Part shown: one piece after another, positions 4,361 through 63,883 of the stretch
Layout of the letters: every line of letters starts with the position of its first letter
How positions within the stretch are numbered: the first letter of the stretch is position 1
Source: Candidatus Microgenomates bacterium
GTDB taxonomy: Bacteria; Patescibacteriota; Microgenomatia; UBA8517; JACQJR01
NCBI GenBank assembly: GCA_016204995.1
Contig: JACQJR010000001.1
Location: 167,793-231,792 of the forward strand
Reading direction: 5' to 3'
DNA length: 64,000 nt
Notes under the pieces: generated by a model
Told to the model about the DNA's origin: nothing
Database searches by the model: none
The model's input: only the letters and a program-made list of their open reading frames with translations
Position numbers and translations under genes: made by a program

Positions 4361-5413
4361 TCAATTTCTGAATGATAAGAAACCTGTTTTTTGATTATAT
4401 TTTAGTTTAATTTTCTGACTATTTTTCTTAAGAGATTTTTGGGCTGCTTCAAGTAGTATTACTAGATTAACTGCATCTTGCAAAGTAATGATTGGCATTT
4501 TCCTGCTAGTAGTCTTTATTAAAAATTCTTCAAAAACACTTTTTAATGGTTCTTTGTTAGGAATATGAGGAATCGTAATATCCCCATAACGCAAAGTAAA
4601 AAAATGTTTTAACAAACCGTCATCATGATTATTTTTTTCTATTCCCCTATCAAAAAGTTTTACTTTACCATCGCTTTGAGTATCATCAAATGATACCATT
4701 TTTTTATCTCCTACTAAAACAAAGGTTCTAGTTTTAATTGGATCTGCCCAACTAACTCTTAAGTTAAAAAGGGTGTTGTCGGCAAATTCTAAAGTTAAAA
4801 ATGCTACATCGTCAATTTTGGGTGTTAAAAAGGCCCGGCCGGCAGCAGTGATACCGGTAGGCTGTTTGTTTAATAAATGGGTAACCGTATAAATAAAATG
4901 AGTTGATAAATCCCACAGCGCCGAGACATCATTTCTGATTGGACCTAATGCAGTATAATCGCCATAGCCATAATGAATTTTACCAAGAGTATTTTTCATT
5001 ATTAATTCTTTAATCTTTTGGATAGCAGGATTAAAAATAAATGTATGATCAACCATTAAAATACTTCCGTTTTTATTGGCTATCTCTGCTAAATAAATAG
5101 CATCCCTGGCTGAAGAAGTAAGAGGTTTTTCCACTAACACATCTTTGCCTGACTGAAGTATTCTTTTAGCAATATCAAAGTGGTTGGCCGCCGGAACTGC
5201 CACGATTATCCCATCGGTACTTTGATCCTTTAGCAAATCACTTAAATTGGTAGTGGTTTTAACATAAGGATAAAATCGCTGAATTATTTTAAGTTTTTCA
5301 ATAGATAAATCGCAACACCAAACTAAATTTGCACCTTCATACTCGTGTACAATCCTGGCAAAATTTGGCCCCCAATGCCCCAATCCTACAATAGCTATAT
5401 TTTTAGTTTTCAT
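4361..5413 (-). CDS. Gfo/Idh/MocA family NAD(P)-dependent oxidoreductase (WbpB-like sugar 3-dehydrogenase candidate)
   Basis: N-terminal Rossmann motif IAIVGLGHWGPNFARIV and EKPL motif. Paralog of 13446..14465. Confidence 0.7.
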   Translation of the reverse strand: MKTKNIAIVGLGHWGPNFARIVHEYEGANLVWCCDLSIEKLKIIQRFYPYVKTTTNLSDLLKDQSTDGIIVAVPAANHFDIAKRILQSGKDVLVEKPLTSSARDAIYLAEIANKNGSILMVDHTFIFNPAIQKIKELIMKNTLGKIHYGYGDYTALGPIRNDVSALWDLSTHFIYTVTHLLNKQPTGITAAGRAFLTPKIDDVAFLTLEFADNTLFNLRVSWADPIKTRTFVLVGDKKMVSFDDTQSDGKVKLFDRGIEKNNHDDGLLKHFFTLRYGDITIPHIPNKEPLKSVFEEFLIKTTSRKMPIITLQDAVNLVILLEAAQKSLKKNSQKIKLKYNQKTGFLSFRN

Positions 5414-47263: not shown

Positions 47264-48002
47264 ATATGAAAATATCTACAAAAATGAGTCATCTCATTTT
47301 TTATATACCTCACGGCACAAAATTATTATCAACTTAGTTAGAAAATATTTCAGAAAAAGCCATGCCTTGAAAATACTAGATGCTGGATGTGGTACGGGGT
47401 TATTTGCTAAAAAACTAGCTAAATTTGGAGATGTAACTGGAATAGATATTAGTTCCCGAGCATTAAAATTTGCCCAAAAAAGAGGTATTAAAACCAAAAA
47501 GGCCTCTGTCATTAAATTACCTTTTAAAGAAAATTATTTTAACTTGTTAGTTTCCATTGATGTTCTTTATCATCGGGCTGTAGAAGATGATGTAAAAGCT
47601 TTGAAAGAATTCTTTCGGGTTTTAAAACCCAATGGATTATTAATTATCCGCCTGCCAGCTAATAAATGGATTAAGACTATTCATGATCAACATGTTCATA
47701 CCCGCCAAAGATATGACAAAGTTGAGCTAAGAAATAAACTAATTAAAGTAGGTTTTGCTATTGAGAAATTATATTTTGTGGATGGTCTATTATTACCTAT
47801 CTCTTTACTGCAAAGTTTGTGGCAGAAAGTTGTTCCCGCCAAGACAACAGAATCTGCCGTTAAACCACTGCCAAAACTGATCAATAACATGCTCGCTTAT
47901 TTACTATCGCAAGATGTGGAATGGCCATTTGGTATCGGATTAATAGCAGTTGGCAGAAAACCATTAAGACACAAAATAACCCCGAGTAAAAAGACCAGTT
48001 AG
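47250..48002 (+). CDS. Class I SAM-dependent methyltransferase
   Basis: ILDAGCGTGLFA motif I. IDIS. VLYH...LKPNGLLII. Confidence 0.75.
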   Translation: MEIAEYENIYKNESSHFLYTSRHKIIINLVRKYFRKSHALKILDAGCGTGLFAKKLAKFGDVTGIDISSRALKFAQKRGIKTKKASVIKLPFKENYFNLLVSIDVLYHRAVEDDVKALKEFFRVLKPNGLLIIRLPANKWIKTIHDQHVHTRQRYDKVELRNKLIKVGFAIEKLYFVDGLLLPISLLQSLWQKVVPAKTTESAVKPLPKLINNMLAYLLSQDVEWPFGIGLIAVGRKPLRHKITPSKKTS

Positions 48003-49106
48003 TAAAAATCCTAAAATTAAATAAATAACTCCAGTAATAAATATTACGTGTTTTCTATCCTTTATTAATAGAGCCAAGCCTAAAAAGCCCGGGAAAAGAT
48101 GAAGTATATATCGCGGAGTACCGGCTAAAACTCCGGTAAACGAAATTAAAGCAAGTAATACCAACATAAAAACACCGTAAGATAGTCTCACTTTTTTCAA
48201 AACAAAAATTGATAAAGCTATATATAAAATCGTTGTCGCTAATTCTAATATTGCTATCCAATAAACAAGTAGATGTTTGTCAACATAAATTAGTATTTTT
48301 ATATACCTAAAAATTGTCTGGGCTGGCATGATAAACCTTTGTTGGTGCCAGGCGATCATTGACTTTTGAAAAAGGAGAAAGTCACCAAAGAATATCTGTA
48401 AATACATCATATAGATAATTATTCCCAGTCCTGTCAAAGATAGAGCAATGAAGCCAGTTTTTAAAAATTTCATCATGGATTTTTTTGAAATAAAAAATTT
48501 TTTCTTTTTAAAAAGCGCCTCGTTTTGTAAATACCATTCCACTGCTAAAGCTGGTAGCAAAGCAAGTCCAGATAAACGAGTCAAAACGGTTAAGCCGCCA
48601 AAAACTCCTGCCAAATGCCAACGGCCACGTCTGGCAAAATAGAAACTTGAAGTAGATAATAACAAAAATAATGAATCTGGATAAACTGCCTGATAAAAAA
48701 ACGCCAGAGGAAAAAAAGATAACAATATCAGGGCAAAATTTGCCAATCTTTCTGGATAATCAATCCTAATTATTTTATAAACCACCCATAAGCCTAAATA
48801 AAAGGAAACTAATGATATTAATATCCCAGCATAGAGAGAAGGAATTTTGAAAATTATATTTAACAAATAAACTAGTAAAGGGTAAAGAGGAAAAAAGGCA
48901 AAATTAAAATTTTGATAACCATTAGTCACAATATCTAAAAAATGCCTACCATCAAAATTAGCCCAAATCCAAACCCAATAGGGAGCTAGGTTATCAACTT
49001 GTTTACCCAGATAACCTTCCTGTAAATGTATTGATGAAGAAGCAATAAAAGCTAGCAGCAGAAAAAATACTCTTGATTGTAACATTAATTTTAGGAACGG
49101 ATTCAT
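47964..49106 (-). CDS. Polytopic membrane protein, GT-C-like (PIG-V/DUF2029-like mannosyltransferase fold candidate)
   Basis: N-terminal TM plus WANFDGRHFLDI loop. About 10 TM helices. Confidence 0.35.
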   Translation of the reverse strand: MNPFLKLMLQSRVFFLLLAFIASSSIHLQEGYLGKQVDNLAPYWVWIWANFDGRHFLDIVTNGYQNFNFAFFPLYPLLVYLLNIIFKIPSLYAGILISLVSFYLGLWVVYKIIRIDYPERLANFALILLSFFPLAFFYQAVYPDSLFLLLSTSSFYFARRGRWHLAGVFGGLTVLTRLSGLALLPALAVEWYLQNEALFKKKKFFISKKSMMKFLKTGFIALSLTGLGIIIYMMYLQIFFGDFLLFQKSMIAWHQQRFIMPAQTIFRYIKILIYVDKHLLVYWIAILELATTILYIALSIFVLKKVRLSYGVFMLVLLALISFTGVLAGTPRYILHLFPGFLGLALLIKDRKHVIFITGVIYLILGFLLTGLFTRGYFVS

Positions 49107-51172
49107 TGTGATAATCCAAAAACTTTTACTTTAGTAATCTTTAGAATACATGAATCAGGATTTTGAGTATCTAGAAATAAAAATTTTCCACTTCTAGCGG
49201 GGAGCAAAAAGACAAAAGTGTTTTTATCGCTCTTTAACCATTGTGTAGGTATTTGAGGATAATCAATAGTTTCTGGTTCTTGTCTCCAATTAATCCCATC
49301 ATTAGACACACGAATATAACCACCCACTTGGTGATTATCACAGTTTTTATCAAGATGCTTAATTTCCAATCTAGTTAGGAATATTTCTTGTTTAAGTTCT
49401 ATTTTAATTATATTATCTTTAATACCAAGGTTATTAACCATATATTCCCGTTCTTTTTCAAAACCAGGCTTAGTATGGGCTAGGTCATTTTTCCAGATTT
49501 TTAGTAAAGATACCCCATCAACTTTTATCTCATGAACCGGAGTCAAAAACATATCGTAGTAAGCAAAACCATACCAAGACTTAGGCGGCCAATCATGGGC
49601 TATCTCCATCACATATTCACCTTGCCTTTGTGGTCCACTCGGATAGGAATTAGAAAAATATATATCCGGCCTTAACTTAGAACGAGGCACGTTGGTCATA
49701 ACGTTAATTGGCAGCCCTAATTTGGCATCTGCCGGCGCATTTTGATTTAACCATTCTACTCCTTGTAAGTAGACATTGCCGTAGCTATTACCCCAAGAAG
49801 GAATATTTCTTTCTTGGGCACCGGATAAACCACCTATTAATTGATTAAAATAAACATTTTCATTAGGATGAATTTCTATTAATTCTCTGCCTATAAAAAT
49901 AAATGATAGAACTACAACTAATATAGCTGATGCAGACAAAAATTTATTTTTGATGTGCAATATTCCAAAAATACTTATCCCACATATAATTGCCAGTACA
50001 GGCAAGAATTCCATAATTTGTCTAACTCCTCCGTAAATATTTGCCCCAGGCAAAGACACTCGTGCTAAAGGCACCCATAACCAAAGTAAAGTTAACAAGG
50101 CTATATCACTTTTCCTTTTAATTAATAAATAAAGGGAAAACAATAAACCGATACCACTCATAATTAAAATTGGTAAGGGAGTAGTATAAATTATCCATTT
50201 GATAGGATAAGTATTAAAACCGAACAATATATACTTTTCCATACTGGTCGGTGTACCCAAACCAATACCTTGATAGTAATTAATTACTTCTCCTAACCTT
50301 CCCCAGTCAGACCATAAAAATGGCCAAAAAGCCAAGAAGATACCTATAACAATTACTGGAAACAAGAATAAGGATAAAATTATTCTTAAATTCAATGTGA
50401 TTTTTTTGGTTAGCAAACCAAAAACAAACCAGGGCCCTACTATAAGTGGTAAAAATAAAGCGTTAAATTTTGTTCCCAAAGCAAAACCGACAAGCACAGC
50501 TGATAAAACGATTAACTTGAAATTTTTAAGTTTAGCGCCAAAAAAGAAACTAATAATAGATAACCCAAAAAAAGAAGCCTCGGTTGGGTCTTTAATATTA
50601 AAATGACTTTCAGCAAAAAATAAAGGATAAAGAGCAAGAGATAAAGAGGCAGTTACTGATGGCCATAAACCAAAGTTATAATAAACAAAAATTCCTACCC
50701 CTAGAACTAATAAAGAGGCTATTACTATCTCAAATAAATGATATGATTCAATATCATCTGTGACGCCCAACTTTTGATAAAAAATATAGTTAAAGAAGGC
50801 AGAAAAAATATCACTAGTAGGCGGATGGCCTCCATCAAATCCGTTAACAAATAAAGAAAAGTTAAAAACATCAGACTGATAATAACTGCGACGAAAAGAA
50901 GGATCAGTAGGATTAGTATTTTTAATGCTATTTTTATAAAGCGGCGATTCCCCGGCCCTGTCTATAAAATCAGAGGTTCCTCGCAACTCTGGATATGAAG
51001 GCAAATCTAAAAAATCCCTCTTACCAGTTAAAAAATAATGTAAATATGCCTGTCCTCTTTGAAAATGTAACGATTCATCCCAATCAATACCATAATCGGA
51101 TAACGTTATAATTCCAATTATTAAAAATAAAATTGGTACGACGAAAATCGCAATCTTCTTAAAAAGTTGCAT
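49103..51172 (-). CDS. GT-C glycosyltransferase (group B; PMT/ArnT/COG1807-like) with C-terminal periplasmic domain
   Basis: The loop-1 motif DYGIDWDESLHFQRGQ carries the conserved DE. AESHFNIKDP. Multi-TM. Paralog of 51174..53162 and 58913..60937. Confidence 0.55.
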   Translation of the reverse strand: MQLFKKIAIFVVPILFLIIGIITLSDYGIDWDESLHFQRGQAYLHYFLTGKRDFLDLPSYPELRGTSDFIDRAGESPLYKNSIKNTNPTDPSFRRSYYQSDVFNFSLFVNGFDGGHPPTSDIFSAFFNYIFYQKLGVTDDIESYHLFEIVIASLLVLGVGIFVYYNFGLWPSVTASLSLALYPLFFAESHFNIKDPTEASFFGLSIISFFFGAKLKNFKLIVLSAVLVGFALGTKFNALFLPLIVGPWFVFGLLTKKITLNLRIILSLFLFPVIVIGIFLAFWPFLWSDWGRLGEVINYYQGIGLGTPTSMEKYILFGFNTYPIKWIIYTTPLPILIMSGIGLLFSLYLLIKRKSDIALLTLLWLWVPLARVSLPGANIYGGVRQIMEFLPVLAIICGISIFGILHIKNKFLSASAILVVVLSFIFIGRELIEIHPNENVYFNQLIGGLSGAQERNIPSWGNSYGNVYLQGVEWLNQNAPADAKLGLPINVMTNVPRSKLRPDIYFSNSYPSGPQRQGEYVMEIAHDWPPKSWYGFAYYDMFLTPVHEIKVDGVSLLKIWKNDLAHTKPGFEKEREYMVNNLGIKDNIIKIELKQEIFLTRLEIKHLDKNCDNHQVGGYIRVSNDGINWRQEPETIDYPQIPTQWLKSDKNTFVFLLPARSGKFLFLDTQNPDSCILKITKVKVFGLSQ

Positions 51173-51173
51173 G

Positions 51174-53162
51174 TTACTGTAAAATATAAATCTCTATTTG
51201 GGAATTATTTGAAAAACAAGAATTATTTTCCGAGGTAATAACTTTAATAAAGCGCAATTCTTTGCCAGATAAATAGAAGTTAACACTATTTTTACCTAAG
51301 TCGTATTGATAGATAACTTGTTCTGTACCTAAAGGCTCAACCTCTCTATACCATGATTGACCATCAAGCGAAGTCTCCACATAACCATTTTTGAGACATC
51401 TTGTTATGTCCTGACGATTTAAAACAATCCTGGTTGCTTCCACATTTTTCTTAGCGTCAATCGTTAAAATATTATTTTTCCAGTTTGATCTGATATCTTT
51501 ATCTAAGACTTCATTCCTTCTCATATGGGGTTTGGTATGTTCAAAATCATTTTTCCAGACCTTAGCCAGAGCAATATTGTCTATTTTAACTTCATAGACC
51601 GGATCTAAAAATCTCTCCAGATAATCCCACACCGAAGGATATTGCCTGGCCGCTCCTTGATAAGTTAATTCCATTAAATACTCTCCACCCCTATTGATGC
51701 CTGTCCAATTAGTGCCGGAAAAATCAATATCCGGCCTTAATTGAATTAAAGGCACATTTTGACCTGTCCCCTGGACTAAGGCAAGACGGGCATTTGGGGG
51801 AGCATTTTTATTAATCCATTGGATGGCTTGCCAATAAGCATTACCATAGGAATTTCCGGCTGAAGGGATACCCGCTTGATAAGCACCCTTTAACCCACCA
51901 ACTAAAAAATTAAAATAAACATTTTCGTTAGGATGAATCTTAGTTAAAACTACTAGTTGTGGAATAAAAGCTAATAAAATGATAACTGATATCCAAAAAT
52001 TCAACTTTTTATTTAATAGCTTCCTTATAAACTCCGCTCCTAAACCAGCTAAAAGTGCCATCGCTGGCAAAAATTCCATAATTTGCCTAACGCCACCGTA
52101 AATTACGGTATTTGGCAGACTAACGCGAAAAATAGGTATACCTAACCATAATAACCATAACCAGTTAGTTTTTTCCCTACCGGGCTTGGATATGGCATAT
52201 ATTAAACCCACACCGCTTAGCAACAAAACCCATGGGGGTGTAGTTACTATAATCCAAAAGATGGGGTACAAATTAAATCCTCCAATACGGTATTCGGCCG
52301 GTTGGTAATTGAAACCTAAAGCAATATCTTGGTAGTAATTTAATACTTTACTAATATGATCCCACGTATCTTGCCAAAGAAATGGCCAAGTAATAAAAGG
52401 AATCGCAATTACTATAAAGGGAGATATCACTAGCATCCTCTTGTAACGTAGAGGAATTTTCTTAATGGAATTCAAAATAATCTTCGGTCCCCTTTTAATT
52501 AATTGAAAGTATCTTAAGAATAGATAAGGGATAACGATAAATGGTAAAAAGATAATATTTAATTTTGTCCCCAACGCTAAACCTGCGCCTATACTGGCTA
52601 TTATCAACCATTTCCAATTACCTTTTTCCAAAGATTTCCAGAAAGCGAAAATAGTTAAGGCGAAAAAAGCTGTTTCTGGTGGATCTTTGATATTAAAATG
52701 ACTTTCGGCAAAAAATAAAGGATAAGTAGTAATTACCAAACTGGCTATGATACTGGCAAAAATTCCATGAGTAAGGTAGGCAAAAATTGCCACAATTAAA
52801 ATTACCAAGGTTGAAATAAATAAGTTATATAAATGATAAGCTTGGATATCCCCTGCTAATCCCAATTTTTGATAAAAAATAAAATTAGAAATTGCTGCCA
52901 ACAGATCACTAGTAACTGGATGTCCCCCATCCCAATCGTAAAGGGCTTTAACATCATAACCATTGAAAAAACTTGGCTTTTGAGAAATCGATCGGCCCTT
53001 TTGCTCAATTTGACCAGTTAAGAAGTAGTAAAGATAACCCTGACCTCTTTGAAAATGAATTGGCTCATCCCAATTAATACCATAGTCATTTAAGGTTAAA
53101 ATACCTGCTATTAAAAAAATTACAGGCACTAAAAAAACAAGAATTTTCTGCTTTAGAGTCAT
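51174..53162 (-). CDS. GT-C glycosyltransferase (group B) with C-terminal periplasmic domain
   Basis: DYGINWDEPIHFQRGQ. FAESHFNIKDP. Contains the 112-nt tract identical to 59569..59680. Confidence 0.55.
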   Translation of the reverse strand: MTLKQKILVFLVPVIFLIAGILTLNDYGINWDEPIHFQRGQGYLYYFLTGQIEQKGRSISQKPSFFNGYDVKALYDWDGGHPVTSDLLAAISNFIFYQKLGLAGDIQAYHLYNLFISTLVILIVAIFAYLTHGIFASIIASLVITTYPLFFAESHFNIKDPPETAFFALTIFAFWKSLEKGNWKWLIIASIGAGLALGTKLNIIFLPFIVIPYLFLRYFQLIKRGPKIILNSIKKIPLRYKRMLVISPFIVIAIPFITWPFLWQDTWDHISKVLNYYQDIALGFNYQPAEYRIGGFNLYPIFWIIVTTPPWVLLLSGVGLIYAISKPGREKTNWLWLLWLGIPIFRVSLPNTVIYGGVRQIMEFLPAMALLAGLGAEFIRKLLNKKLNFWISVIILLAFIPQLVVLTKIHPNENVYFNFLVGGLKGAYQAGIPSAGNSYGNAYWQAIQWINKNAPPNARLALVQGTGQNVPLIQLRPDIDFSGTNWTGINRGGEYLMELTYQGAARQYPSVWDYLERFLDPVYEVKIDNIALAKVWKNDFEHTKPHMRRNEVLDKDIRSNWKNNILTIDAKKNVEATRIVLNRQDITRCLKNGYVETSLDGQSWYREVEPLGTEQVIYQYDLGKNSVNFYLSGKELRFIKVITSENNSCFSNNSQIEIYILQ
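51827..51938. repeat. 112-nt tract 100% identical to 59569..59680 (dispersed repeat inside two otherwise diverged GT-C paralogs)
   Basis: Aligned by eye. Both tracts encode IHPNENVYFNFLVGGLKGAYQAGIPSAGNSYGNAYWQ. Confidence 0.8.
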
Positions 53163-55297: not shown

Positions 55298-57769
55298 CTA
55301 GCCTTTAGGAAAGGCTTTAACTAAATTAGCTACCTTTTCAACTTCTTCGTCAGTAATAACGGCATCTAAAGGTAGAGTCACTACCCGAGAAGCTATATAT
55401 TCTGTCACTGGAAGTTTGGCATGATTATATTTGGCAAAAGCTGGTTCTTTATTAAGGGCTAGAAAATGGAAAGAGCAACCAACGCCATTTTCTTTCATAT
55501 ATTCAAAAAACTCATCACGCTTCTTTTCTACTAATATCGGATAAAGATGAGTCCCTTTATTATTAAATCCTAATAATTCATTATAAAGAGCTACTACTTC
55601 CTTTCGTCTTTGCTCAAATTGATCAAGGCGAGCCAGCTGCACCCTACCTAAGGCTGAATTAATATCAGTGGTATTAAATTTATAACCAGGAAATTCCACT
55701 TCATAGACCCATTTTGATTTAAGTTGATACCTTTTCCAGGCATCACGCGACAGACCATGCAACCGGGCCTTCCTTAACCAATCGGCCACTTTCTCATCAT
55801 TGGTAGTAATCATCCCGCCCTCACCCGTAGTCATATTTTTGGTAGCGTAAAAAGAGTAACAACGGGTAAAAGAATTAGTATTGTCGCCATTTTTAGGAAT
55901 CAAATGAGCACTATCTTCAATAATTGGCAGATCTGTTTCTATTATTGCCCGATTCCCCCCATAGTGGACTGGCATTACTGCTTTCGTTTTTTGGGTGATA
56001 ACTTTTTCCAATGATTTTTGATCCATACAAAAATTTTCTTTGTTAATATCAGCAAAAACTGGTGTGGCTCCAGCATGAACAATTACAGAAACTGTCGCAG
56101 GGAAAGTAAAGGCCGGTACAATCACCTCATCTCCTGTCTTAATACCTAAAGCCTTGAGGGAAAGAAAAAGAGCTGCCGTACAACTATTAACTGCGATGGC
56201 ATATTTTGCCCCAACGTAACTTGCAAATTCCTCTTCAAACTTAACTGTTTCTTCTCCCATCGTCAACCAACCACTTTGTAAAATTTGTGCCACCGCATTT
56301 ACCTCCATCCGCTTAATATTGGTACGAGAGAAAGGAATTACACCATTACTGGAATTATGATTTGTTAAATTGGGAACAAACTTATTTAAAGTCATTAGAG
56401 CTAATTCTATATTATTACTCTCTACTGCCTTTCTTAAATCAGCTAAATCATAAAGATCAATATTGGCCGCATGCTGACTAACCCGAAAAATTCTACCATG
56501 ACCAGTTTTCTCTAGATATTCATCTTCTGCGATTAATTGTTCAGTAATTTTTTCACCCGGCCGTCGCCCTATGTATTTAACTTGAATCTCTTCTCCAGGA
56601 ACAAATCCAGCTAGTTGAATCATAAATTTGGCCAAGTCATCGATTCTAAATTGCTCACCCATGTCTAGCACAAAAATCTCTCCACCGCGACCGATGACGC
56701 TGGTATGAAGCACTAATTGCACTGCTTCTGGGATAGTCATCATAAACCTGGTCATTCTAGTATCAGTTACCGTAACAGGACCGCCACTGGCAATCTGTTT
56801 TCTAAAGATTGGCATAACACTACCATGACTATCCATCACATTACCAAATCTGACAGCGCAATATTTAGTCCTACCTAGATCATTAAGACTGGCTAAAATA
56901 TGTTCTCCCACGAGCTTTGTCGTTCCCATCACACTTTGAGGGCTGGCCGCCTTGTCAGTAGAAATATAAACAAACTTTTCCACTCCTTCTTCGTAAGCCA
57001 CTTTGGCTAGATTTTCCGTACCAAAAACATTATTGCGAATTGCCTCCAAGGGATGGCTTTCCATTAAAGGTACGTGTTTAAAAGCGGCGGCATGGAAAAT
57101 GACATCAGGCCTGTTCTTCCTTATTACATCCTGTACTTTTCTTCTATCCTGCATGTTACCAACCATGCATTCAAAATTTCCTTCCGATGCTAGTTCTGCT
57201 AACTCAAACCCTAACTCAAATAAACCATTTTCCCACCAATCAAAAGCGATTAATTTTTTAGGAGAAAATTGAATAAGCTGACGACAAATTTCTGAGCCGA
57301 TTGAGCCAGCTGCTCCTACTACTATCAGAGTTTTATCTTTGAACTCACTCTCAAAAATTGGTTGTTCTTTTTTGACAATAGCCTTACCGAATAAATCTTC
57401 TATTTTTAGTTCACGGAATTGTTCCAGTTTTACCTTTCCTTGAACCATCTCTAGGGTACGAGGAACAATTTTAAAAAATACTCTCGCCCCTCGGCACGCT
57501 TCTAAAATTTTTCTGATGGTACTTCCTTCAGCGGAGGGAATCGCTATTAAAATTCCGTCTACAGAATATTTTTTAATCAATAGTAGTAATTCATCAATTT
57601 TACCTAAAATTTTAACGCCTTTGATGTCTTTGCCGATTTTGGTTTTATCATCATCAATAAAACCAACAACTTGATATTGTTTTTTAAAATGAAGACGTAG
57701 CTCGTTTAATAATTCTTCTCCGGCTACACCAGCTCCAACTATTAATACTTTTTGAGAATTTTTATTCAT
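55298..57769 (-). CDS. Bifunctional fusion: PglF/CapD/WbpM-like UDP-sugar 4,6-dehydratase (soluble, two Rossmann domains) plus C-terminal DegT-family aminotransferase (PglE-like)
   Basis: N-terminal LIVGAGVAGEEL...GFIDDD linker domain and LIVVGAAGSIGSEI...HAAAFKHVPLME...STDKAASPQSVMGTTK catalytic SDR domain. C-terminal ILQSGWLTMGEETVKFEEEF...AVNSCTAALFLSL DegT domain. The ORF is continuous. Confidence 0.7.
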   Translation of the reverse strand: MNKNSQKVLIVGAGVAGEELLNELRLHFKKQYQVVGFIDDDKTKIGKDIKGVKILGKIDELLLLIKKYSVDGILIAIPSAEGSTIRKILEACRGARVFFKIVPRTLEMVQGKVKLEQFRELKIEDLFGKAIVKKEQPIFESEFKDKTLIVVGAAGSIGSEICRQLIQFSPKKLIAFDWWENGLFELGFELAELASEGNFECMVGNMQDRRKVQDVIRKNRPDVIFHAAAFKHVPLMESHPLEAIRNNVFGTENLAKVAYEEGVEKFVYISTDKAASPQSVMGTTKLVGEHILASLNDLGRTKYCAVRFGNVMDSHGSVMPIFRKQIASGGPVTVTDTRMTRFMMTIPEAVQLVLHTSVIGRGGEIFVLDMGEQFRIDDLAKFMIQLAGFVPGEEIQVKYIGRRPGEKITEQLIAEDEYLEKTGHGRIFRVSQHAANIDLYDLADLRKAVESNNIELALMTLNKFVPNLTNHNSSNGVIPFSRTNIKRMEVNAVAQILQSGWLTMGEETVKFEEEFASYVGAKYAIAVNSCTAALFLSLKALGIKTGDEVIVPAFTFPATVSVIVHAGATPVFADINKENFCMDQKSLEKVITQKTKAVMPVHYGGNRAIIETDLPIIEDSAHLIPKNGDNTNSFTRCYSFYATKNMTTGEGGMITTNDEKVADWLRKARLHGLSRDAWKRYQLKSKWVYEVEFPGYKFNTTDINSALGRVQLARLDQFEQRRKEVVALYNELLGFNNKGTHLYPILVEKKRDEFFEYMKENGVGCSFHFLALNKEPAFAKYNHAKLPVTEYIASRVVTLPLDAVITDEEVEKVANLVKAFPKG

Positions 57770-58912: not shown

Positions 58913-60937
58913 TCAATCTTTTAGAATAGATAATTCTATAGCAGGATCGTGTAGAAGACAAGATTGGGCGTCTTTGGCTATAATTTTTATATATTTAGCA
59001 GGTCTGGCTGAAAAATAATAATAAATAGTATTGTCCTTTTTTGTAAGTTCACTTACTTGCTCTGTTGGAATAGGCTCTATTTCTTGACTAAATTTAATAC
59101 CATCAACTGAAGTCCAAATGTCACCATTATTTCCTTGGCAACCAATACCAATATATCCTAAAGTTAATCTCGTTAACAAAACTGGTTTTTCTAACTTAAA
59201 AATAATTTCACTATCAATTATTTTTTGACTAATTAGACCCTTGTACAACACTTCAGGTTTTCGATATTCCAGTTTGGTATGTTCTAAATCATTTTTCCAT
59301 ACCCTGGCAATTGCCATATCATCAACTTTAACTTCATAAACCGGTTCAAGTAATGTGTCTACATAATCCCAAGCATAAGGGAATAGTTTTAAAATTTTAG
59401 CAGGCGTAAGTTCTATTAAATATTCTCCCTCCCTATTAATACCAGTCCAATAACTATTTGAAAAATCTAAATCTGTTCTTAATTCGCTAGTTGCGATATT
59501 AAGACTTGTTCCCTGTATTAAAGCAATTCTAGAGTTCTGTTCAGCGTGCTTATTGAGCCATTGGATAACTTGCCAATAAGCATTACCATAGGAATTTCCG
59601 GCTGAAGGGATACCCGCTTGATAAGCACCCTTTAACCCACCAACTAAAAAATTAAAATAAACATTTTCGTTAGGATGAATTTTATAAAGAGGATATATAC
59701 TAATTAATAATAAACTTGCCACGAATAGACAATTTATTAAGATAGAATATCTAGGCAAAAATTTAATAAAATGATGACGCAACCAATCCGCACCTACCCC
59801 ACTTATTAGAGCCATAGCGGGGATATATTCCATAATTTGCCTAACCCCCCCATAAATAGAAGTATTAGGAAAGCTAACCCGACCTACTGTAACAATAAAA
59901 ATCAAAAACCATAACACAAAAACATAATTATTTTTATACCAATTATTTCTCCAATTAATTAATCCTGCTAGAAAACAAATTAGAATTAAAGGTGGTGTCG
60001 TGTACAAAATCCAACGGGCAGCATAAAAATTCCAAGCCGTGAGAGGATTAAAATCGAATGAAGATTCTGTACCTAATTCCTTGTAATAGCTAAAAACTAA
60101 AACTAAATTCCCAAAAATATCTTGCCAAAGAAAAGGCCAAATAGCTATCAAAATAGTTAGCATAATAAGAGGAAAGATTAATAATATTAAAAGTACATTT
60201 TTTTGAAAAAGGAAACTGACAAATTTCTTTTTTTCTTTAATTAGAAGCAATAACGCCCAAGGCGTAACAATAAATGGCGAAAATAAAATATTAAATTTTA
60301 CACTAAAAGCTAAACCAGCAGCGATAGCTGCAAACAAGATGTATTTAATTTTTTGTTTGTTAAAGATTTTCCATAATAGATAAAGTGTTAATACAAAAAA
60401 GAATGATTGAGCAGGATCCTTAATATTAAAATGACTCTCGGACCAAAAAAGCGGATAGCTACCCATAAAAATAGCTGAAAATATCCCGGGCCCTAAACCA
60501 AAAGTTTCTATAGCGAATAAAAAAACTAATCCCACTAAAAGGCTGCTAATAAAAATATTAAAAAGGTGATAACTAGCTATATCACCCGCTATTCCTAGTT
60601 TTTGATAGAAAATATAATTAAATAAGGCTGATAAAATATCATTTAGGGGAGGATGACCTTTGTCATCAACAAACCATGTTTGTGCACCATATGCATCATG
60701 CTGATAATAGCTTCTAGAGTGGTAATTTGGATCAGATCGGGCTTTGTCTAGTTGGTAAGGAGGTAAACCTTCATAAGTTGCTTTACCAGTTAAAAATAAT
60801 CTTAAATAACCTTGGCCTCTTAGAAAGTGCTCGGGTTCATCCCAAGACAAACCATAATGGCTATTAGTCAAAATGCCGTCAATTAAAAAAATTAGCGCAA
60901 CTAGTAGAGATAAAAAGAGATTTTTCTTCAGATGCAA
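58913..60937 (-). CDS. GT-C glycosyltransferase (group B) with C-terminal periplasmic domain
   Basis: HYGLSWDEPEHFLRGQ. WSESHFNIKDP. Contains the 112-nt tract identical to 51827..51938. Confidence 0.55.
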   Translation of the reverse strand: MHLKKNLFLSLLVALIFLIDGILTNSHYGLSWDEPEHFLRGQGYLRLFLTGKATYEGLPPYQLDKARSDPNYHSRSYYQHDAYGAQTWFVDDKGHPPLNDILSALFNYIFYQKLGIAGDIASYHLFNIFISSLLVGLVFLFAIETFGLGPGIFSAIFMGSYPLFWSESHFNIKDPAQSFFFVLTLYLLWKIFNKQKIKYILFAAIAAGLAFSVKFNILFSPFIVTPWALLLLIKEKKKFVSFLFQKNVLLILLIFPLIMLTILIAIWPFLWQDIFGNLVLVFSYYKELGTESSFDFNPLTAWNFYAARWILYTTPPLILICFLAGLINWRNNWYKNNYVFVLWFLIFIVTVGRVSFPNTSIYGGVRQIMEYIPAMALISGVGADWLRHHFIKFLPRYSILINCLFVASLLLISIYPLYKIHPNENVYFNFLVGGLKGAYQAGIPSAGNSYGNAYWQVIQWLNKHAEQNSRIALIQGTSLNIATSELRTDLDFSNSYWTGINREGEYLIELTPAKILKLFPYAWDYVDTLLEPVYEVKVDDMAIARVWKNDLEHTKLEYRKPEVLYKGLISQKIIDSEIIFKLEKPVLLTRLTLGYIGIGCQGNNGDIWTSVDGIKFSQEIEPIPTEQVSELTKKDNTIYYYFSARPAKYIKIIAKDAQSCLLHDPAIELSILKD
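59569..59680. repeat. Second copy of the 112-nt identical tract (see 51827..51938)
   Basis: Aligned by eye. Confidence 0.8.
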
Positions 60938-61578: not shown

Positions 61579-62790
61579 TTGGTATCATTTAAACATTACA
61601 TGTGGCCATTTTTTACTTTAAAGCTGCAAAAGCAAAAATTAGCAGATAGTATAAACAAAGTTTTATCTCAAGCTGATTTAAGGAAAAAGATTAGAAAATT
61701 TTCTATAATCTTAGTCACTCCTATTTTTAGTATCTTTTTTACTTTATTAATCATGGAAGGGTTTATCAGGGCATTTTTACACCCTAGCGAAGCTCCTGAT
61801 ATTTATTTCAATAATAATCTAGGTAATCTTTTTGTTCCTAATCAAACTGGCTACTACATTAAAGGTAAAAACTCCGAAATTATAGCTAAATTTAACATTA
61901 ATAAACAAGGATGGAATTCGCCTTATGATTATATAGAAACTAAATCACCAACTATTAAACGCTTCGCTTTCATCGGTGACTCATTTATAGAATCTCTACA
62001 AGTTAATTATGATAAATCATACCCATATTTACTTAATGAAAAGTTAAAAAATAAAAATGTTGATGTTTATACTTTTGGCCATTCCGGTGCCAACCTAATT
62101 CATTATTCCCATATGATGGACTTTGTAGGAAATAAATACCAACCGGATTTGGTTTTTGTCAATATTGTTAGTAATGATTTCAAAGAAAGTCTTAGTGGCT
62201 ACAACCGAATAGACAATTGGTCTCTTATCTATAATAATAAAGGTTTTAGTCAAAAGTCACCCAGGGAGGTTAGTAATTTAGCGATTAAACGCTTAGCTAG
62301 AAAATCCGCCTTAGTCAGATATCTAACTATTAATCTTGATTTAATCAATACCTCTCCTTTTCTGAATAAAATTTTTTATGCAGAAACTAGACAAAATAAA
62401 TTAGATAAAAATATGGAAGAGTTATTTGATGGTAATCAGTTTTTGGAATCTATGGTTGAATATATACTTCAACAATTTTTGACTATCAGTAAAGATAATA
62501 AATTTAAGCTTGTATTAGTTTTAGATACGGATAGGCAAGCTATTTATGGTAATCAAGATCTATATAAAACTGAAAACTATAGATACAGATCGGCTGTTAA
62601 AACTGCTGCTAAAAAATTCAATATTAATGTTATAGATTTAACCGAAATTTTCCAAAAAGACTGGCAGGTTAATCACAAGAGATTTGATTGGTCCATTGAT
62701 GACCATTGGAATGAATATGGGCATGAATTAGTAGTAAATACTATTAATAATTGGTTAAATTCTTTTAATAAAAACTATAAACTTTTTTAA
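61579..62790 (+). CDS. SGNH/GDSL-family hydrolase with N-terminal TM anchor (possible glycan O-acetylesterase/acyltransferase module)
   Basis: FAFIGDSFIE (GDS block I). FGHSGAN (block II Gly). DDHWNEYGHELV (DxxH block V). The likely true start is the ATG at 61600; the ORF-track TTG is at 61579. Confidence 0.6.
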   Translation: MVSFKHYMWPFFTLKLQKQKLADSINKVLSQADLRKKIRKFSIILVTPIFSIFFTLLIMEGFIRAFLHPSEAPDIYFNNNLGNLFVPNQTGYYIKGKNSEIIAKFNINKQGWNSPYDYIETKSPTIKRFAFIGDSFIESLQVNYDKSYPYLLNEKLKNKNVDVYTFGHSGANLIHYSHMMDFVGNKYQPDLVFVNIVSNDFKESLSGYNRIDNWSLIYNNKGFSQKSPREVSNLAIKRLARKSALVRYLTINLDLINTSPFLNKIFYAETRQNKLDKNMEELFDGNQFLESMVEYILQQFLTISKDNKFKLVLVLDTDRQAIYGNQDLYKTENYRYRSAVKTAAKKFNINVIDLTEIFQKDWQVNHKRFDWSIDDHWNEYGHELVVNTINNWLNSFNKNYKLF

Positions 62791-63883
62791 CTAATTGCAA
62801 ACTTTGCTGGCGAGATTTATTCCAATCAAAATTTTTACTCCACCTTAATGCACCTTGTTGTAACTTTTGATATTCTTTTTGATTAGCTAATAAATCAACT
62901 ATATTACTGGCTAAATTTTCTGGAGAATTTTGACTACACAAAATTCCACTTACACCTTCCTCAATTGAATCAATTATTCCTTGCGATTTGTAGGCTACCA
63001 CGGGTGTCCCTACACTATTGGCTTCAATATTAACCAAACCCCATCCTTCATGTACTGATGGATTAACTAAAATATGACTTCTTGACAGAAGTGTAAATTT
63101 TTTGGCTTGTGTCACATATCCCCAAAATTTAATCTTTTTGGATAAATTTAATTTATTAACTAATCTTTTTAATTGATTAAAATATTTGGCCGTCTCTGGT
63201 TTCCCAATTACCCAAAATTGCCAAGTAGGTGGTAATAAAGAAAAACATTTAATAGCATCCTCTATACCCTTATCTTTTGATAATATTCCCAGATAAACAA
63301 CTGTTTTAACTTTTAACTTTGTACTTTTAACTTTTAACTTAGTAGTTATTACTCCATGTGGTATTACTGCAATATTTTTTGGGGGTATTCCCATTTTAAT
63401 AACATCGGCTTTTGCTGATTCTGAACCAGTCATAAATGGAGTTTTTTTATAGATTAAAAAAATAAAAGGTTCAACCCAATAACCCAATAACCCAATAACC
63501 CAATTTAAGGGTCGCGGCAAAGGATTTAAAAACCAAACTTTTCTAGCGGTTTCTTGAATTACTGCTAATTTTGGTTTTCTAACATATAGTGGAGTAAAAA
63601 ATGGCAAGCCATGAAATTGATCAACAATGAAATCAAAATTACTTTTATTTTTCAGATAATAATAAAATCCTGCTATTTGAACGCCTAAATATTGATAACC
63701 TCCGCGAATAATTTTTACACCTCCTATATATTCTTCTGGTTGAGAATTAGGAAAGCGTGAAGAAAAAAGCATCACTTGATACCCCGCCTTAATCCACCCT
63801 TTCATATGCTGATGCATTACCTGCTCTGCTCCACCAGCCAAAGGATGTTTTGGATCTCTCCAGGAAAAAACTAAAATGTTCAT
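62765..63883 (-). CDS. GT4 family (GT-B) glycosyltransferase
   Basis: HEGWGLVNIEANSVGTPVV EX7E motif. Contains an internal 8-nt x4 repeat and a 21-nt tandem repeat. Confidence 0.7.
   Translation of the reverse strand: MNILVFSWRDPKHPLAGGAEQVMHQHMKGWIKAGYQVMLFSSRFPNSQPEEYIGGVKIIRGGYQYLGVQIAGFYYYLKNKSNFDFIVDQFHGLPFFTPLYVRKPKLAVIQETARKVWFLNPLPRPLNWVIGLLGYWVEPFIFLIYKKTPFMTGSESAKADVIKMGIPPKNIAVIPHGVITTKLKVKSTKLKVKTVVYLGILSKDKGIEDAIKCFSLLPPTWQFWVIGKPETAKYFNQLKRLVNKLNLSKKIKFWGYVTQAKKFTLLSRSHILVNPSVHEGWGLVNIEANSVGTPVVAYKSQGIIDSIEEGVSGILCSQNSPENLASNIVDLLANQKEYQKLQQGALRWSKNFDWNKSRQQSLQLVKKVYSFY
63303..63344. repeat. 21-nt tandem direct repeat x2 (GTTTTAACTTTTAACTTTGTA / CTTTTAACTTTTAACTTAGTA) inside the GT4 coding region, in frame (KLKVKST/KLKVKTV)
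   Basis: 19/21 identity between the two copies. Confidence 0.7.
63473..63504. repeat. Octanucleotide simple-sequence repeat (AACCCAAT)x4 inside the GT4 coding region
   Basis: Four perfect tandem copies read from the sequence. On the coding strand they encode NWVIGLLGYWV. Confidence 0.8.

Follow-up and report, generated by a model that had tools for sequence, protein, structure and literature searches.

An octanucleotide array in the codons of a conserved Microgenomates glycosyltransferase as a candidate phase-variation switch

Can a glycosyltransferase of an uncultured bacterium be turned off and on again by slippage at a short DNA repeat in the middle of its gene? The question is raised by a 64,000-nucleotide (nt) stretch of Candidatus Microgenomates bacterium (NCBI GenBank assembly GCA_016204995.1, contig JACQJR010000001.1, positions 167,793 to 231,792), hereafter the window, in which positions 63473 to 63504 of the + strand read (AACCCAAT)x4 with zero mismatches. 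The array lies inside a GT4 glycosyltransferase gene (62765 to 63883, - strand), and an initial annotation of the window proposed it as a slipped-strand contingency switch. Our analysis indicates that the repeat is real, slippage-prone, and not a product of chance. Phase variation driven by the array is plausible but unproven, and we assign it a probability of roughly 0.4; a non-adaptive origin of the same repeat is almost as likely.

Direct reading of the window and Tandem Repeats Finder (TRF; period 8, 4.0 copies, 100% matches, score 64) agree on the four perfect tandem octamers that the initial annotation had placed in this coding region. On the coding (-) strand the array is (ATTGGGTT)x4, spans gene nt 380 to 411, 34% into the open reading frame (ORF), and is read through codons 127 to 137 as A-AT TGG GTT ATT GGG TTA TTG GGT TAT TGG GTT, so that it encodes N127 to V137, and translation of the ORF confirms the previously reported peptide NWVIGLLGYWV. 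The gene, the only long ORF across the array, has an ATG start and a product of 372 amino acids (aa; MBI4058821.1), and its assignment to GT4 stands on two Pfam matches above threshold: Glycos_transf_1 (PF00534, 1.6e-32, 112.9 bits against a cut-off of 26.4) and Glyco_transf_4 (PF13439, 1.2e-09, 38.8 bits against a cut-off of 28.5). The AlphaFold2 model (mean predicted local distance difference test score, 91.7) is that of a GT-B enzyme of two Rossmann domains, and the best structural matches found with Foldseek are MshA (3c4q; template modeling [TM] score, 0.82), sucrose-phosphate synthase (6kih, ~0.83), BshA, and WaaG. Residues 126 to 144 (LNWVIGLLGYWVEPFIFLI; 63452 to 63508, - strand) form one helix of the N-terminal Rossmann domain in this model, and the array supplies the first 11 residues of that helix, including the invariant G131 and G134. 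The C-terminal domain carries the E279-GWGLVNI-E287 (E-x7-E) motif (63023 to 63049, - strand), both glutamates of which are invariant among 40 family representatives.

The consequences of a change in unit number were derived in silico. With three copies, a stop follows straight after ...GLLG and the product is 134 aa long; two, five, and six copies give 137, 145, and 142 aa, respectively. One or seven copies keep the frame, with the helix 8 residues shorter or longer. Every out-of-frame product lacks the C-terminal Rossmann domain and the invariant E279-x7-E287, and the contention that a unit length not divisible by three would let the gain or loss of one unit frameshift the enzyme is thus upheld in silico. 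In the mechanism that we propose, the array is a microsatellite set in the codons of a conserved structural helix and prone to slipped-strand mispairing, and any state other than four units loses the reading frame or departs from the ancestral length of the helix. A one-unit slip at replication would shorten the product to 134 or 145 residues and remove the catalytic C-terminal domain, and a second slip would restore the gene. The locus would then be a hotspot at which the function for one step of envelope-glycan synthesis is reversibly lost, that is, a low-rate simple sequence repeat (SSR) contingency switch. The mechanism further supposes that as few as four units suffice for slippage at a useful rate, that purity is kept either by cycles of loss and regain or by selection for mutability, and that OFF cells are viable and sometimes favored.

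The purity of the tract exceeds what composition and coding constraint lead one to expect. None of 100 dinucleotide shuffles produced the array pattern, even with 3 mismatches allowed, and the 64 kb contain no other perfect repeat of 14 nt or more with three or more copies of a 2- to 9-nt unit (homopolymers reach at most T9, which occurs twice, and C7). When all 48 window proteins were held fixed and synonymous codons were shuffled within genes, 1 of 1,000 shuffles reached a non-triplet repeat of 32 nt. The analytic probability of the exact codon series, given the peptide and the codon usage of the window, is 2.6e-4, a low value because the series requires GGG, which makes up 13% of the Gly codons, and TTG, which makes up 15% of those for Leu. 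Both kinds of shuffle, together with the comparison of orthologues below, rule out a chance origin, and a dispersed repeat family in the window is likewise ruled out, as the 5 other isolated copies of the 8-mer stand against 4.8 expected. One might still suppose a coincidence of codon choice that was picked up because many windows were scanned, or an artifact of assembly. A per-window probability of ~1e-3 under the synonymous-shuffle null does predict isolated cases in a scan of many windows; the window sequence, however, agrees between two assemblies, and the ORF is intact and aligns over its full length to its family. The second of these assemblies, GCA_964556865.1 (locus L001), is 100% identical to the window over the 4,375 nt that they share, including four copies of the array, and most likely represents the same population.

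A more searching question is whether the repeat is simply the DNA image of a conserved peptide. The initial annotation had held that conservation of the peptide across distant orthologues for structural reasons would refute a switch, and for the peptide such conservation was found: the array region, at the start of its helix, is gap-free in an alignment of 120 homologues of 60 to 69% identity, and in more than 140 family members in all. The columns read N (116/120), W (94/120), [I/L/V], [V/I], G (119/120), x, [I/L/V], G (120/120), and [Y/F], followed mostly by L and G and then by E-P. The period in the DNA is not explained by this conservation. We took the orthologous 33 nt from 78 other loci and counted matches between each base and the base 8 nt downstream; such lag-8 matches number 24/24 in the window and 3 to 15/24 in 77 other GTDB orthologues. 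The near-identical peptides NWVIGALGYFV, NWVIGITGYIL, and NWIVGFIGYWG are encoded with only 9 to 13/24 matches. Since the same or nearly the same peptide is thus encoded elsewhere without the period, protein conservation is ruled out as the full explanation.

The comparison also constrains how the array arose. There is no length difference, and no insertion or deletion, relative to ~220 orthologues, which rules out an origin by tandem duplication and implies that an array of ancestral length was made by substitution rather than by expansion. Approximately seven substitutions separate it from the codons of its nearest relatives. The rare W136-V137 (TGG GTT) differs from the consensus L-G (TTG GGT, as in locus L032) by one substitution in each codon, and through both of them the fourth unit comes to equal the third.

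These observations are the foundation of the non-adaptive explanation, which is only slightly less probable than phase variation. It holds that the quasi-periodic, T/G-rich codons of the helix were brought, in a few lineages, to perfect periodicity at 8 nt, whether by point substitutions or by templated copying from a neighboring unit during transient misalignment, with the peptide never leaving the range that the helix can accept; rare slippage would then yield null alleles of an important gene, these would be purged, and nothing would be regulated. The motif N-W-[IV]-[IV]-G-[LI]-[IL]-G-Y-[L]-[G] aligns without gaps in every orthologue and is not lengthened by the repeat, orthologues show graded period-8 or period-9 similarity of up to 15/24, and the two single substitutions at W136 and V137 count in its favor. 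Against it stand the ~7 changes needed, all in one direction, and a lag-8 distribution that is bimodal, with values of 24 and 22 set apart from a remainder of no more than 15.

The value of 22/24 belongs to a second lineage. Protein P0003, from a Logan assembly of SRR22387948 (locus L202), has 67% aa identity to the window protein and an identical NWVIGLLGYWV peptide, which is found in only two of 143 family proteins and is expected, from the column frequencies of the 120 homologues, at a few per million. Its codons are AAC TGG GTT ATT GGG TTA TTG GGT TAT TGG GTG and differ from the window array only in the first and last bases. The periodic 29-nt stretch that the two genes share (L202 1533 to 1561) is the longest run of identity between them, the next being 23 nt, at an overall nucleotide identity of 70%. 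Within it, all seven degenerate codons are identical, compared with 54% of identical-residue codons gene-wide, and the probability of these seven codons, given the peptide and the codon usage of L202 itself, is 4.5e-4. A one-unit change would truncate this gene as well, to products of 142 to 153 aa in silico.

Recent transfer between the two carriers and recent shared ancestry are both ruled out. The codons flanking the two arrays differ at almost every synonymous site, and the window protein (P0001) and P0003 are not sisters in a neighbor-joining tree. Outside the motif they share only 2 rare residues, P0003 ranking 70th among the partners of P0001 and P0001 35th among those of P0003. In L202 the GT4 gene is preceded by EamA and followed by a UDP-glucose dehydrogenase gene, unlike the order flippase-GT2-TPR-GT4...DUF5667 that the window has in common with other relatives. 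A homologue search with P0003 (4,604 relatives at E<=1e-30) found no relative above 70% identity. The octamer array would therefore either have arisen twice or have stayed perfect since a deep split, and its presence in lineages that do not group as sisters implies an influence on the DNA in addition to that on the protein. This result bears upon two of the alternatives. A coincidence or an assembly artifact is difficult to reconcile with the same repeat in the same codons of an independent assembly of a different lineage. On the non-adaptive explanation, a frameshift hotspot in a core gene should have been interrupted by synonymous changes, yet both lineages have a pure tract, although 46% of their synonymous codons differ in the rest of the gene.

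The unit lengths of repeats in related loci speak to the same alternatives. We scanned 733 kb of non-redundant Microgenomates DNA, composed of the window and 85 loci around GT4 orthologues, for perfect repeats in open frames (3.5 or more copies, 21 nt or longer) and recovered five heptamers and two octamers, where synonymous shuffling predicts 0.03 heptamers, 0 octamers, 0.05 hexamers, and 0.02 nonamers. No perfect repeats with units of 4, 5, 6, or 9 to 12 nt were found under these thresholds in the 733 kb. The numbers are small and all loci were chosen around a glycan gene, so the scan compares unit lengths within glycan loci. Among the 29 arrays that TRF reports at a minimum of 3 copies and 85% matches, 17 have a period of 7, which is thus the dominant one. 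The heptamers, all of which are hosted by intact ORFs, are (CCTATAC)4.7 inside a GT2 gene (L019 5439 to 5471), (AAATTGG)3.7 and (AAAGTTC)3.9 in the interdomain linkers of other GT4 enzymes (L025 218 to 243 and L052 7505 to 7531), (AATTTTC)4.6 inside a GT-C gene of the Mannosyl_trans2-like type (L203 1903 to 1934), and (AATTTTC)3.6 in the 5' leader of a flippase gene (L017 1610 to 1634). Neutral slippage should leave in-frame repeats of 6 or 9 nt at least as often as repeats of 7 or 8 nt; as judged from these sequences, the presence of frameshifting units and the absence of in-frame ones is the opposite of what neutral slippage under purifying selection would leave, which is a second difficulty for the non-adaptive explanation. 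The bias would fit contingency-type selection or a mutational process with a step of 7 to 8 nt. For its part, a coincidence of codon choice fails to account for seven repeats with 7- or 8-nt units where ~0.03 were expected; together with the possibility of artifact it is already disfavored, and we consider it highly improbable. A different kind of repeat occurs in Candidatus Woesebacteria GW2011_GWB1_39_10, in which a perfect 14-nt unit (ATCTTAGATCATGA) is repeated 4.5 times at L027 3883 to 3945 and takes up the intergenic spacer ~55 nt upstream of the start of the GT4 orthologue, a classic position for phase variation of promoter spacing.

Could the tract instead be held in place by its properties as a nucleic acid? 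On the sense strand, GGGTTATTGGGTTATTGGGTTATTGGG parses as GGG-TTATT-GGG-TTATT-GGG-TTATT-GGG, a canonical (G3-N5)x3-G3 quadruplex motif, and a G-quadruplex might influence the stability of the mRNA or cause a pause, in transcription or in translation, between the two domains, with slippage a mere side effect. The two strands of the window, which has 31 to 39% GC, contain no other (G3 N1-7)x3 G3 motif (one found, 0.055 expected), all four GGG tracts and their loops are kept in L202, and the isolated array folds as a quadruplex at -5.2 kcal/mol in ViennaRNA with G-quadruplex energies. In a context of 100 nt, however, the minimum-energy fold consists of ordinary hairpins at -19.2 kcal/mol without a quadruplex, and a quadruplex needs neither identical loops nor a perfect period. 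Only two of ~220 lineages carry the motif, moreover, and related arrays in metagenomes mix units of ATTAGGTT and ATTGAGTT that have no G3 tracts. We judge such a constraint improbable. The metagenome arrays come from a scan of JGI metagenomes for (ATTGGGTT)x3, which returned at least 120 loci (L082 to L201) with 3 to 12 perfect copies on contigs of 19 to 70% GC. Among the matches listed, none lies in an orthologue of this GT4; they are mostly in short-ORF or intergenic DNA of unrelated organisms, embedded in degenerate ATTRRGTT arrays, several of them at contig ends, and several long contigs have more than one array. A cyanobacterial origin of these arrays is ruled out, as the HIP1 octamer is not enriched.

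The direct sign of a switch would be a population in which the unit number differs, and no such population came to light. We derived 13 predicted variant products (the 1-, 2-, 3-, 5-, 6-, and 7-unit products of the window, three possible C-terminal fragments, and four variants of L202), and none was found by exact look-up among 15 billion proteins; a flank-anchored pattern allowing 2 to 5 units had 0 hits in JGI metagenomes, both being searches of almost no power in which each lineage is sampled once or twice. The 90% cluster of the window protein has one member, on two contigs, and that of P0003 one member on one contig. All three assemblies with the octamer array are ON and have the same unit count. 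The (AATTTTC) heptamer of L203 likewise has one copy number in L203, L204, and L046, which represent a single population (2 single-nucleotide polymorphisms in 6 kb).

The character of the gene weighs against phase variation. A search that starts from the window protein finds 1,869 relatives at E<=1e-10, and the best 120 of these are full length at 60 to 69% identity, save for one fusion (P0005, 47%). Orthologues occur in genomes labeled Woesebacteria, Daviesbacteria, Blackburnbacteria, and Amesbacteria, and 75 columns are invariant among the 40 representatives, which is atypical of a contingency gene. Such phylum-wide conservation at 60 to 70% identity is expected of a core envelope function rather than of a variable accessory transferase, and it suggests that the gene is not freely dispensable. 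Four units are at the low end for hypermutability; the array sits mid-gene in a conserved helix, unlike evolved switches, which are typically near the 5' end; its length is the ancestral one; and no other repeat of this kind is present among the ~48 genes of the window. Several of these points, namely the appearance of a core gene, the restriction of the repeat to 2 of ~220 lineages, and the lack of variants in the look-ups and the JGI scan, count in favor of the non-adaptive explanation. Of the proposed on/off contingency switch, then, the mechanics and a signal in the DNA beyond that of the peptide have held up, whereas no copy-number variant has come to light and both gene and helix are conserved.

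The GT4 gene contains a second, imperfect repeat at 63304 to 63344 (- strand), which can be described as 21 nt x2 (95% matches) or 7 nt x5.3 (86%). Its translation, TKLKVKS/TKLKVKT, falls in the interdomain linker without lengthening the protein compared with orthologues; as the repeat is in frame, it is ruled out as a switch. Several orthologues have a similar peptide pattern, K-x-K-[VI]-K ... K-x-K-[VI]-K-T, and L009 has a 7-nt x5.4 array (4543 to 4580) at the same position in the gene. Some family members are ~250 residues longer than the rest, among them P0005 (629 aa) and P0139 (624 aa), the latter a fusion of methyltransferase domains to GT4; in L205, the orthologue is followed, a few genes downstream, by a gene for a methyltransferase.

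The host DNA has a GC content of 29 to 39%, and the neighborhood of the array in the window is a large glycan cluster with four PMT_2-type GT-C paralogues, another GT4, a GT2, a methyltransferase, and a dehydratase-aminotransferase fusion. The initial annotation was right to place the gene in a glycan island but not at its edge, an impression that arises because the window boundary falls there: L001 shows further members of the cluster past that boundary, namely genes for a GT4, a GT-C enzyme of the Mannosyl_trans2-like type, a flippase, a GT2, and a TPR protein. The PMT_2-type paralogues occupy 47964 to 53162 and 58913 to 60937. A 59-nt segment of L001 (9200 to 9258, near window 59626 to 59684) matches window 51884 to 51942 at 98% at the point where the GCA_964556865.1 contig ends, which is probably a repeat between paralogues that broke the short-read assembly. 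At 55298 to 57769 lies an 823-aa fusion of a PglF-like Polysacc_synt_2 dehydratase (6e-105) and a DegT/DnrJ/EryC1 aminotransferase (4e-97), which places two consecutive steps of amino-sugar synthesis in one polypeptide. A convergent GDSL-hydrolase gene (61579 to 62790) overlaps the last 26 nt of the GT4 gene with its 3' end, an arrangement also seen in L206. In the P0002 lineage from Hainich groundwater, the closest relative, the gene directly upstream of GT4 (L203/L204 4595 to 4987) encodes a 130-aa protein of the bAvd/23S_rRNA_IVP family, which includes the accessory protein of diversity-generating retroelements.

[quoted passage not shown] If it never varies, it is an unusually perfect coincidence of codons in a conserved helix. 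Two results demand an explanation in either case, the identical DNA repeat in lineages that do not group as sisters and the exclusively out-of-frame repeats of 7 to 8 nt in glycan genes, and, on the sequences compared, the two together point to selection for mutability or to an unrecognized mutational process that homogenizes quasi-repeats. The interest of the locus comes mainly from this convergent, or long-preserved, DNA repeat and from the 7- to 8-nt repeats of neighboring glycan genes. A broader proposition, that the Microgenomates carry a phase-variable set of ~4-copy coding repeats of 7 or 8 nt in envelope-glycan genes, the conserved GT4 among them, the purity of which is maintained or regenerated at the DNA level so that lineages not grouping as sisters converge, seems to us doubtful at present.

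As an enzyme, the product of this gene resembles MshA, BshA, WaaG, and sucrose-phosphate synthase in its two Rossmann domains and its E-x7-E motif. Its sequence identity to every solved structure is only 13 to 20%, and the hydrophobic motif NWxxGxxGY..EP of helix 126 to 144 is specific to this Microgenomates family. As a repeat, the array invites comparison with the short tandemly repeated repetitive (STRR) heptamer arrays of filamentous cyanobacteria, which have units of 7 to 8 nt in small, mostly intergenic tandem arrays. Small arrays are scattered in the Microgenomates loci too, with period 7 dominant, but those of interest here lie inside intact ORFs, and the octamer arrays of metagenomes are not cyanobacterial.

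A closer parallel is offered by the SSR contingency loci of pathogens, such as the tetranucleotides of lic2A and oafA in Haemophilus influenzae and the homopolymers in glycan genes of Campylobacter and Neisseria, which vary between strains. The Microgenomates locus shares with them a glycosyltransferase target in a surface-glycan cluster, a proposed slipped-strand frameshift, and a purity above the codon-shuffled expectation; it departs from them in that known tracts are usually longer, whereas here four units lie 34% into the ORF, in a conserved helix, and no variants were found. The codon-shuffled expectation is the test used by Lin and Kussell (PMC3315296), and that study states that repeats are enriched close to N-termini in those species that are believed to tune them for phase variation, while coding sequences generally suppress repeats in mid-protein. 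The cryptic coding repeats described there (Lin and Kussell, 2011) resemble ours in being mid-protein repeats in a structurally constrained segment, but ours exceeds the purity expected under synonymous shuffling and is present in a second lineage as well. Of the work that mentions both the candidate phyla radiation and phase variation, PMC6851277 concerns an in-frame 9-nt repeat of a surface protein, and the literature that we searched discusses only other mechanisms of diversification in these bacteria and not stochastic switching of surface glycans.

The most direct precedent is losA of H. influenzae, a lipooligosaccharide biosynthetic gene with tandem octanucleotides (Erwin et al., 2006, reference 46 of PMC6156194) that PMC6156194 lists as phase variable by change of repeat number, with documented heterogeneity of unit number among isolates and a serum-resistance phenotype. 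Both loci have a non-triplet 8-nt unit in tandem inside a surface-glycan gene, with the number of units setting the frame. The present one differs in its uncultured Microgenomates host, in a gene that is conserved across the phylum rather than accessory, and in the absence of documented heterogeneity. Known heptanucleotide tracts inside ORFs have 8 to 14 units, and octanucleotide tracts have 1 to 6 units among strains of H. influenzae, or 12 to 15 when they lie upstream of genes (PMC2651432). Set beside these systems, the array is a candidate case of the known SSR contingency mechanism in an unusual organism and an unusually conserved gene.

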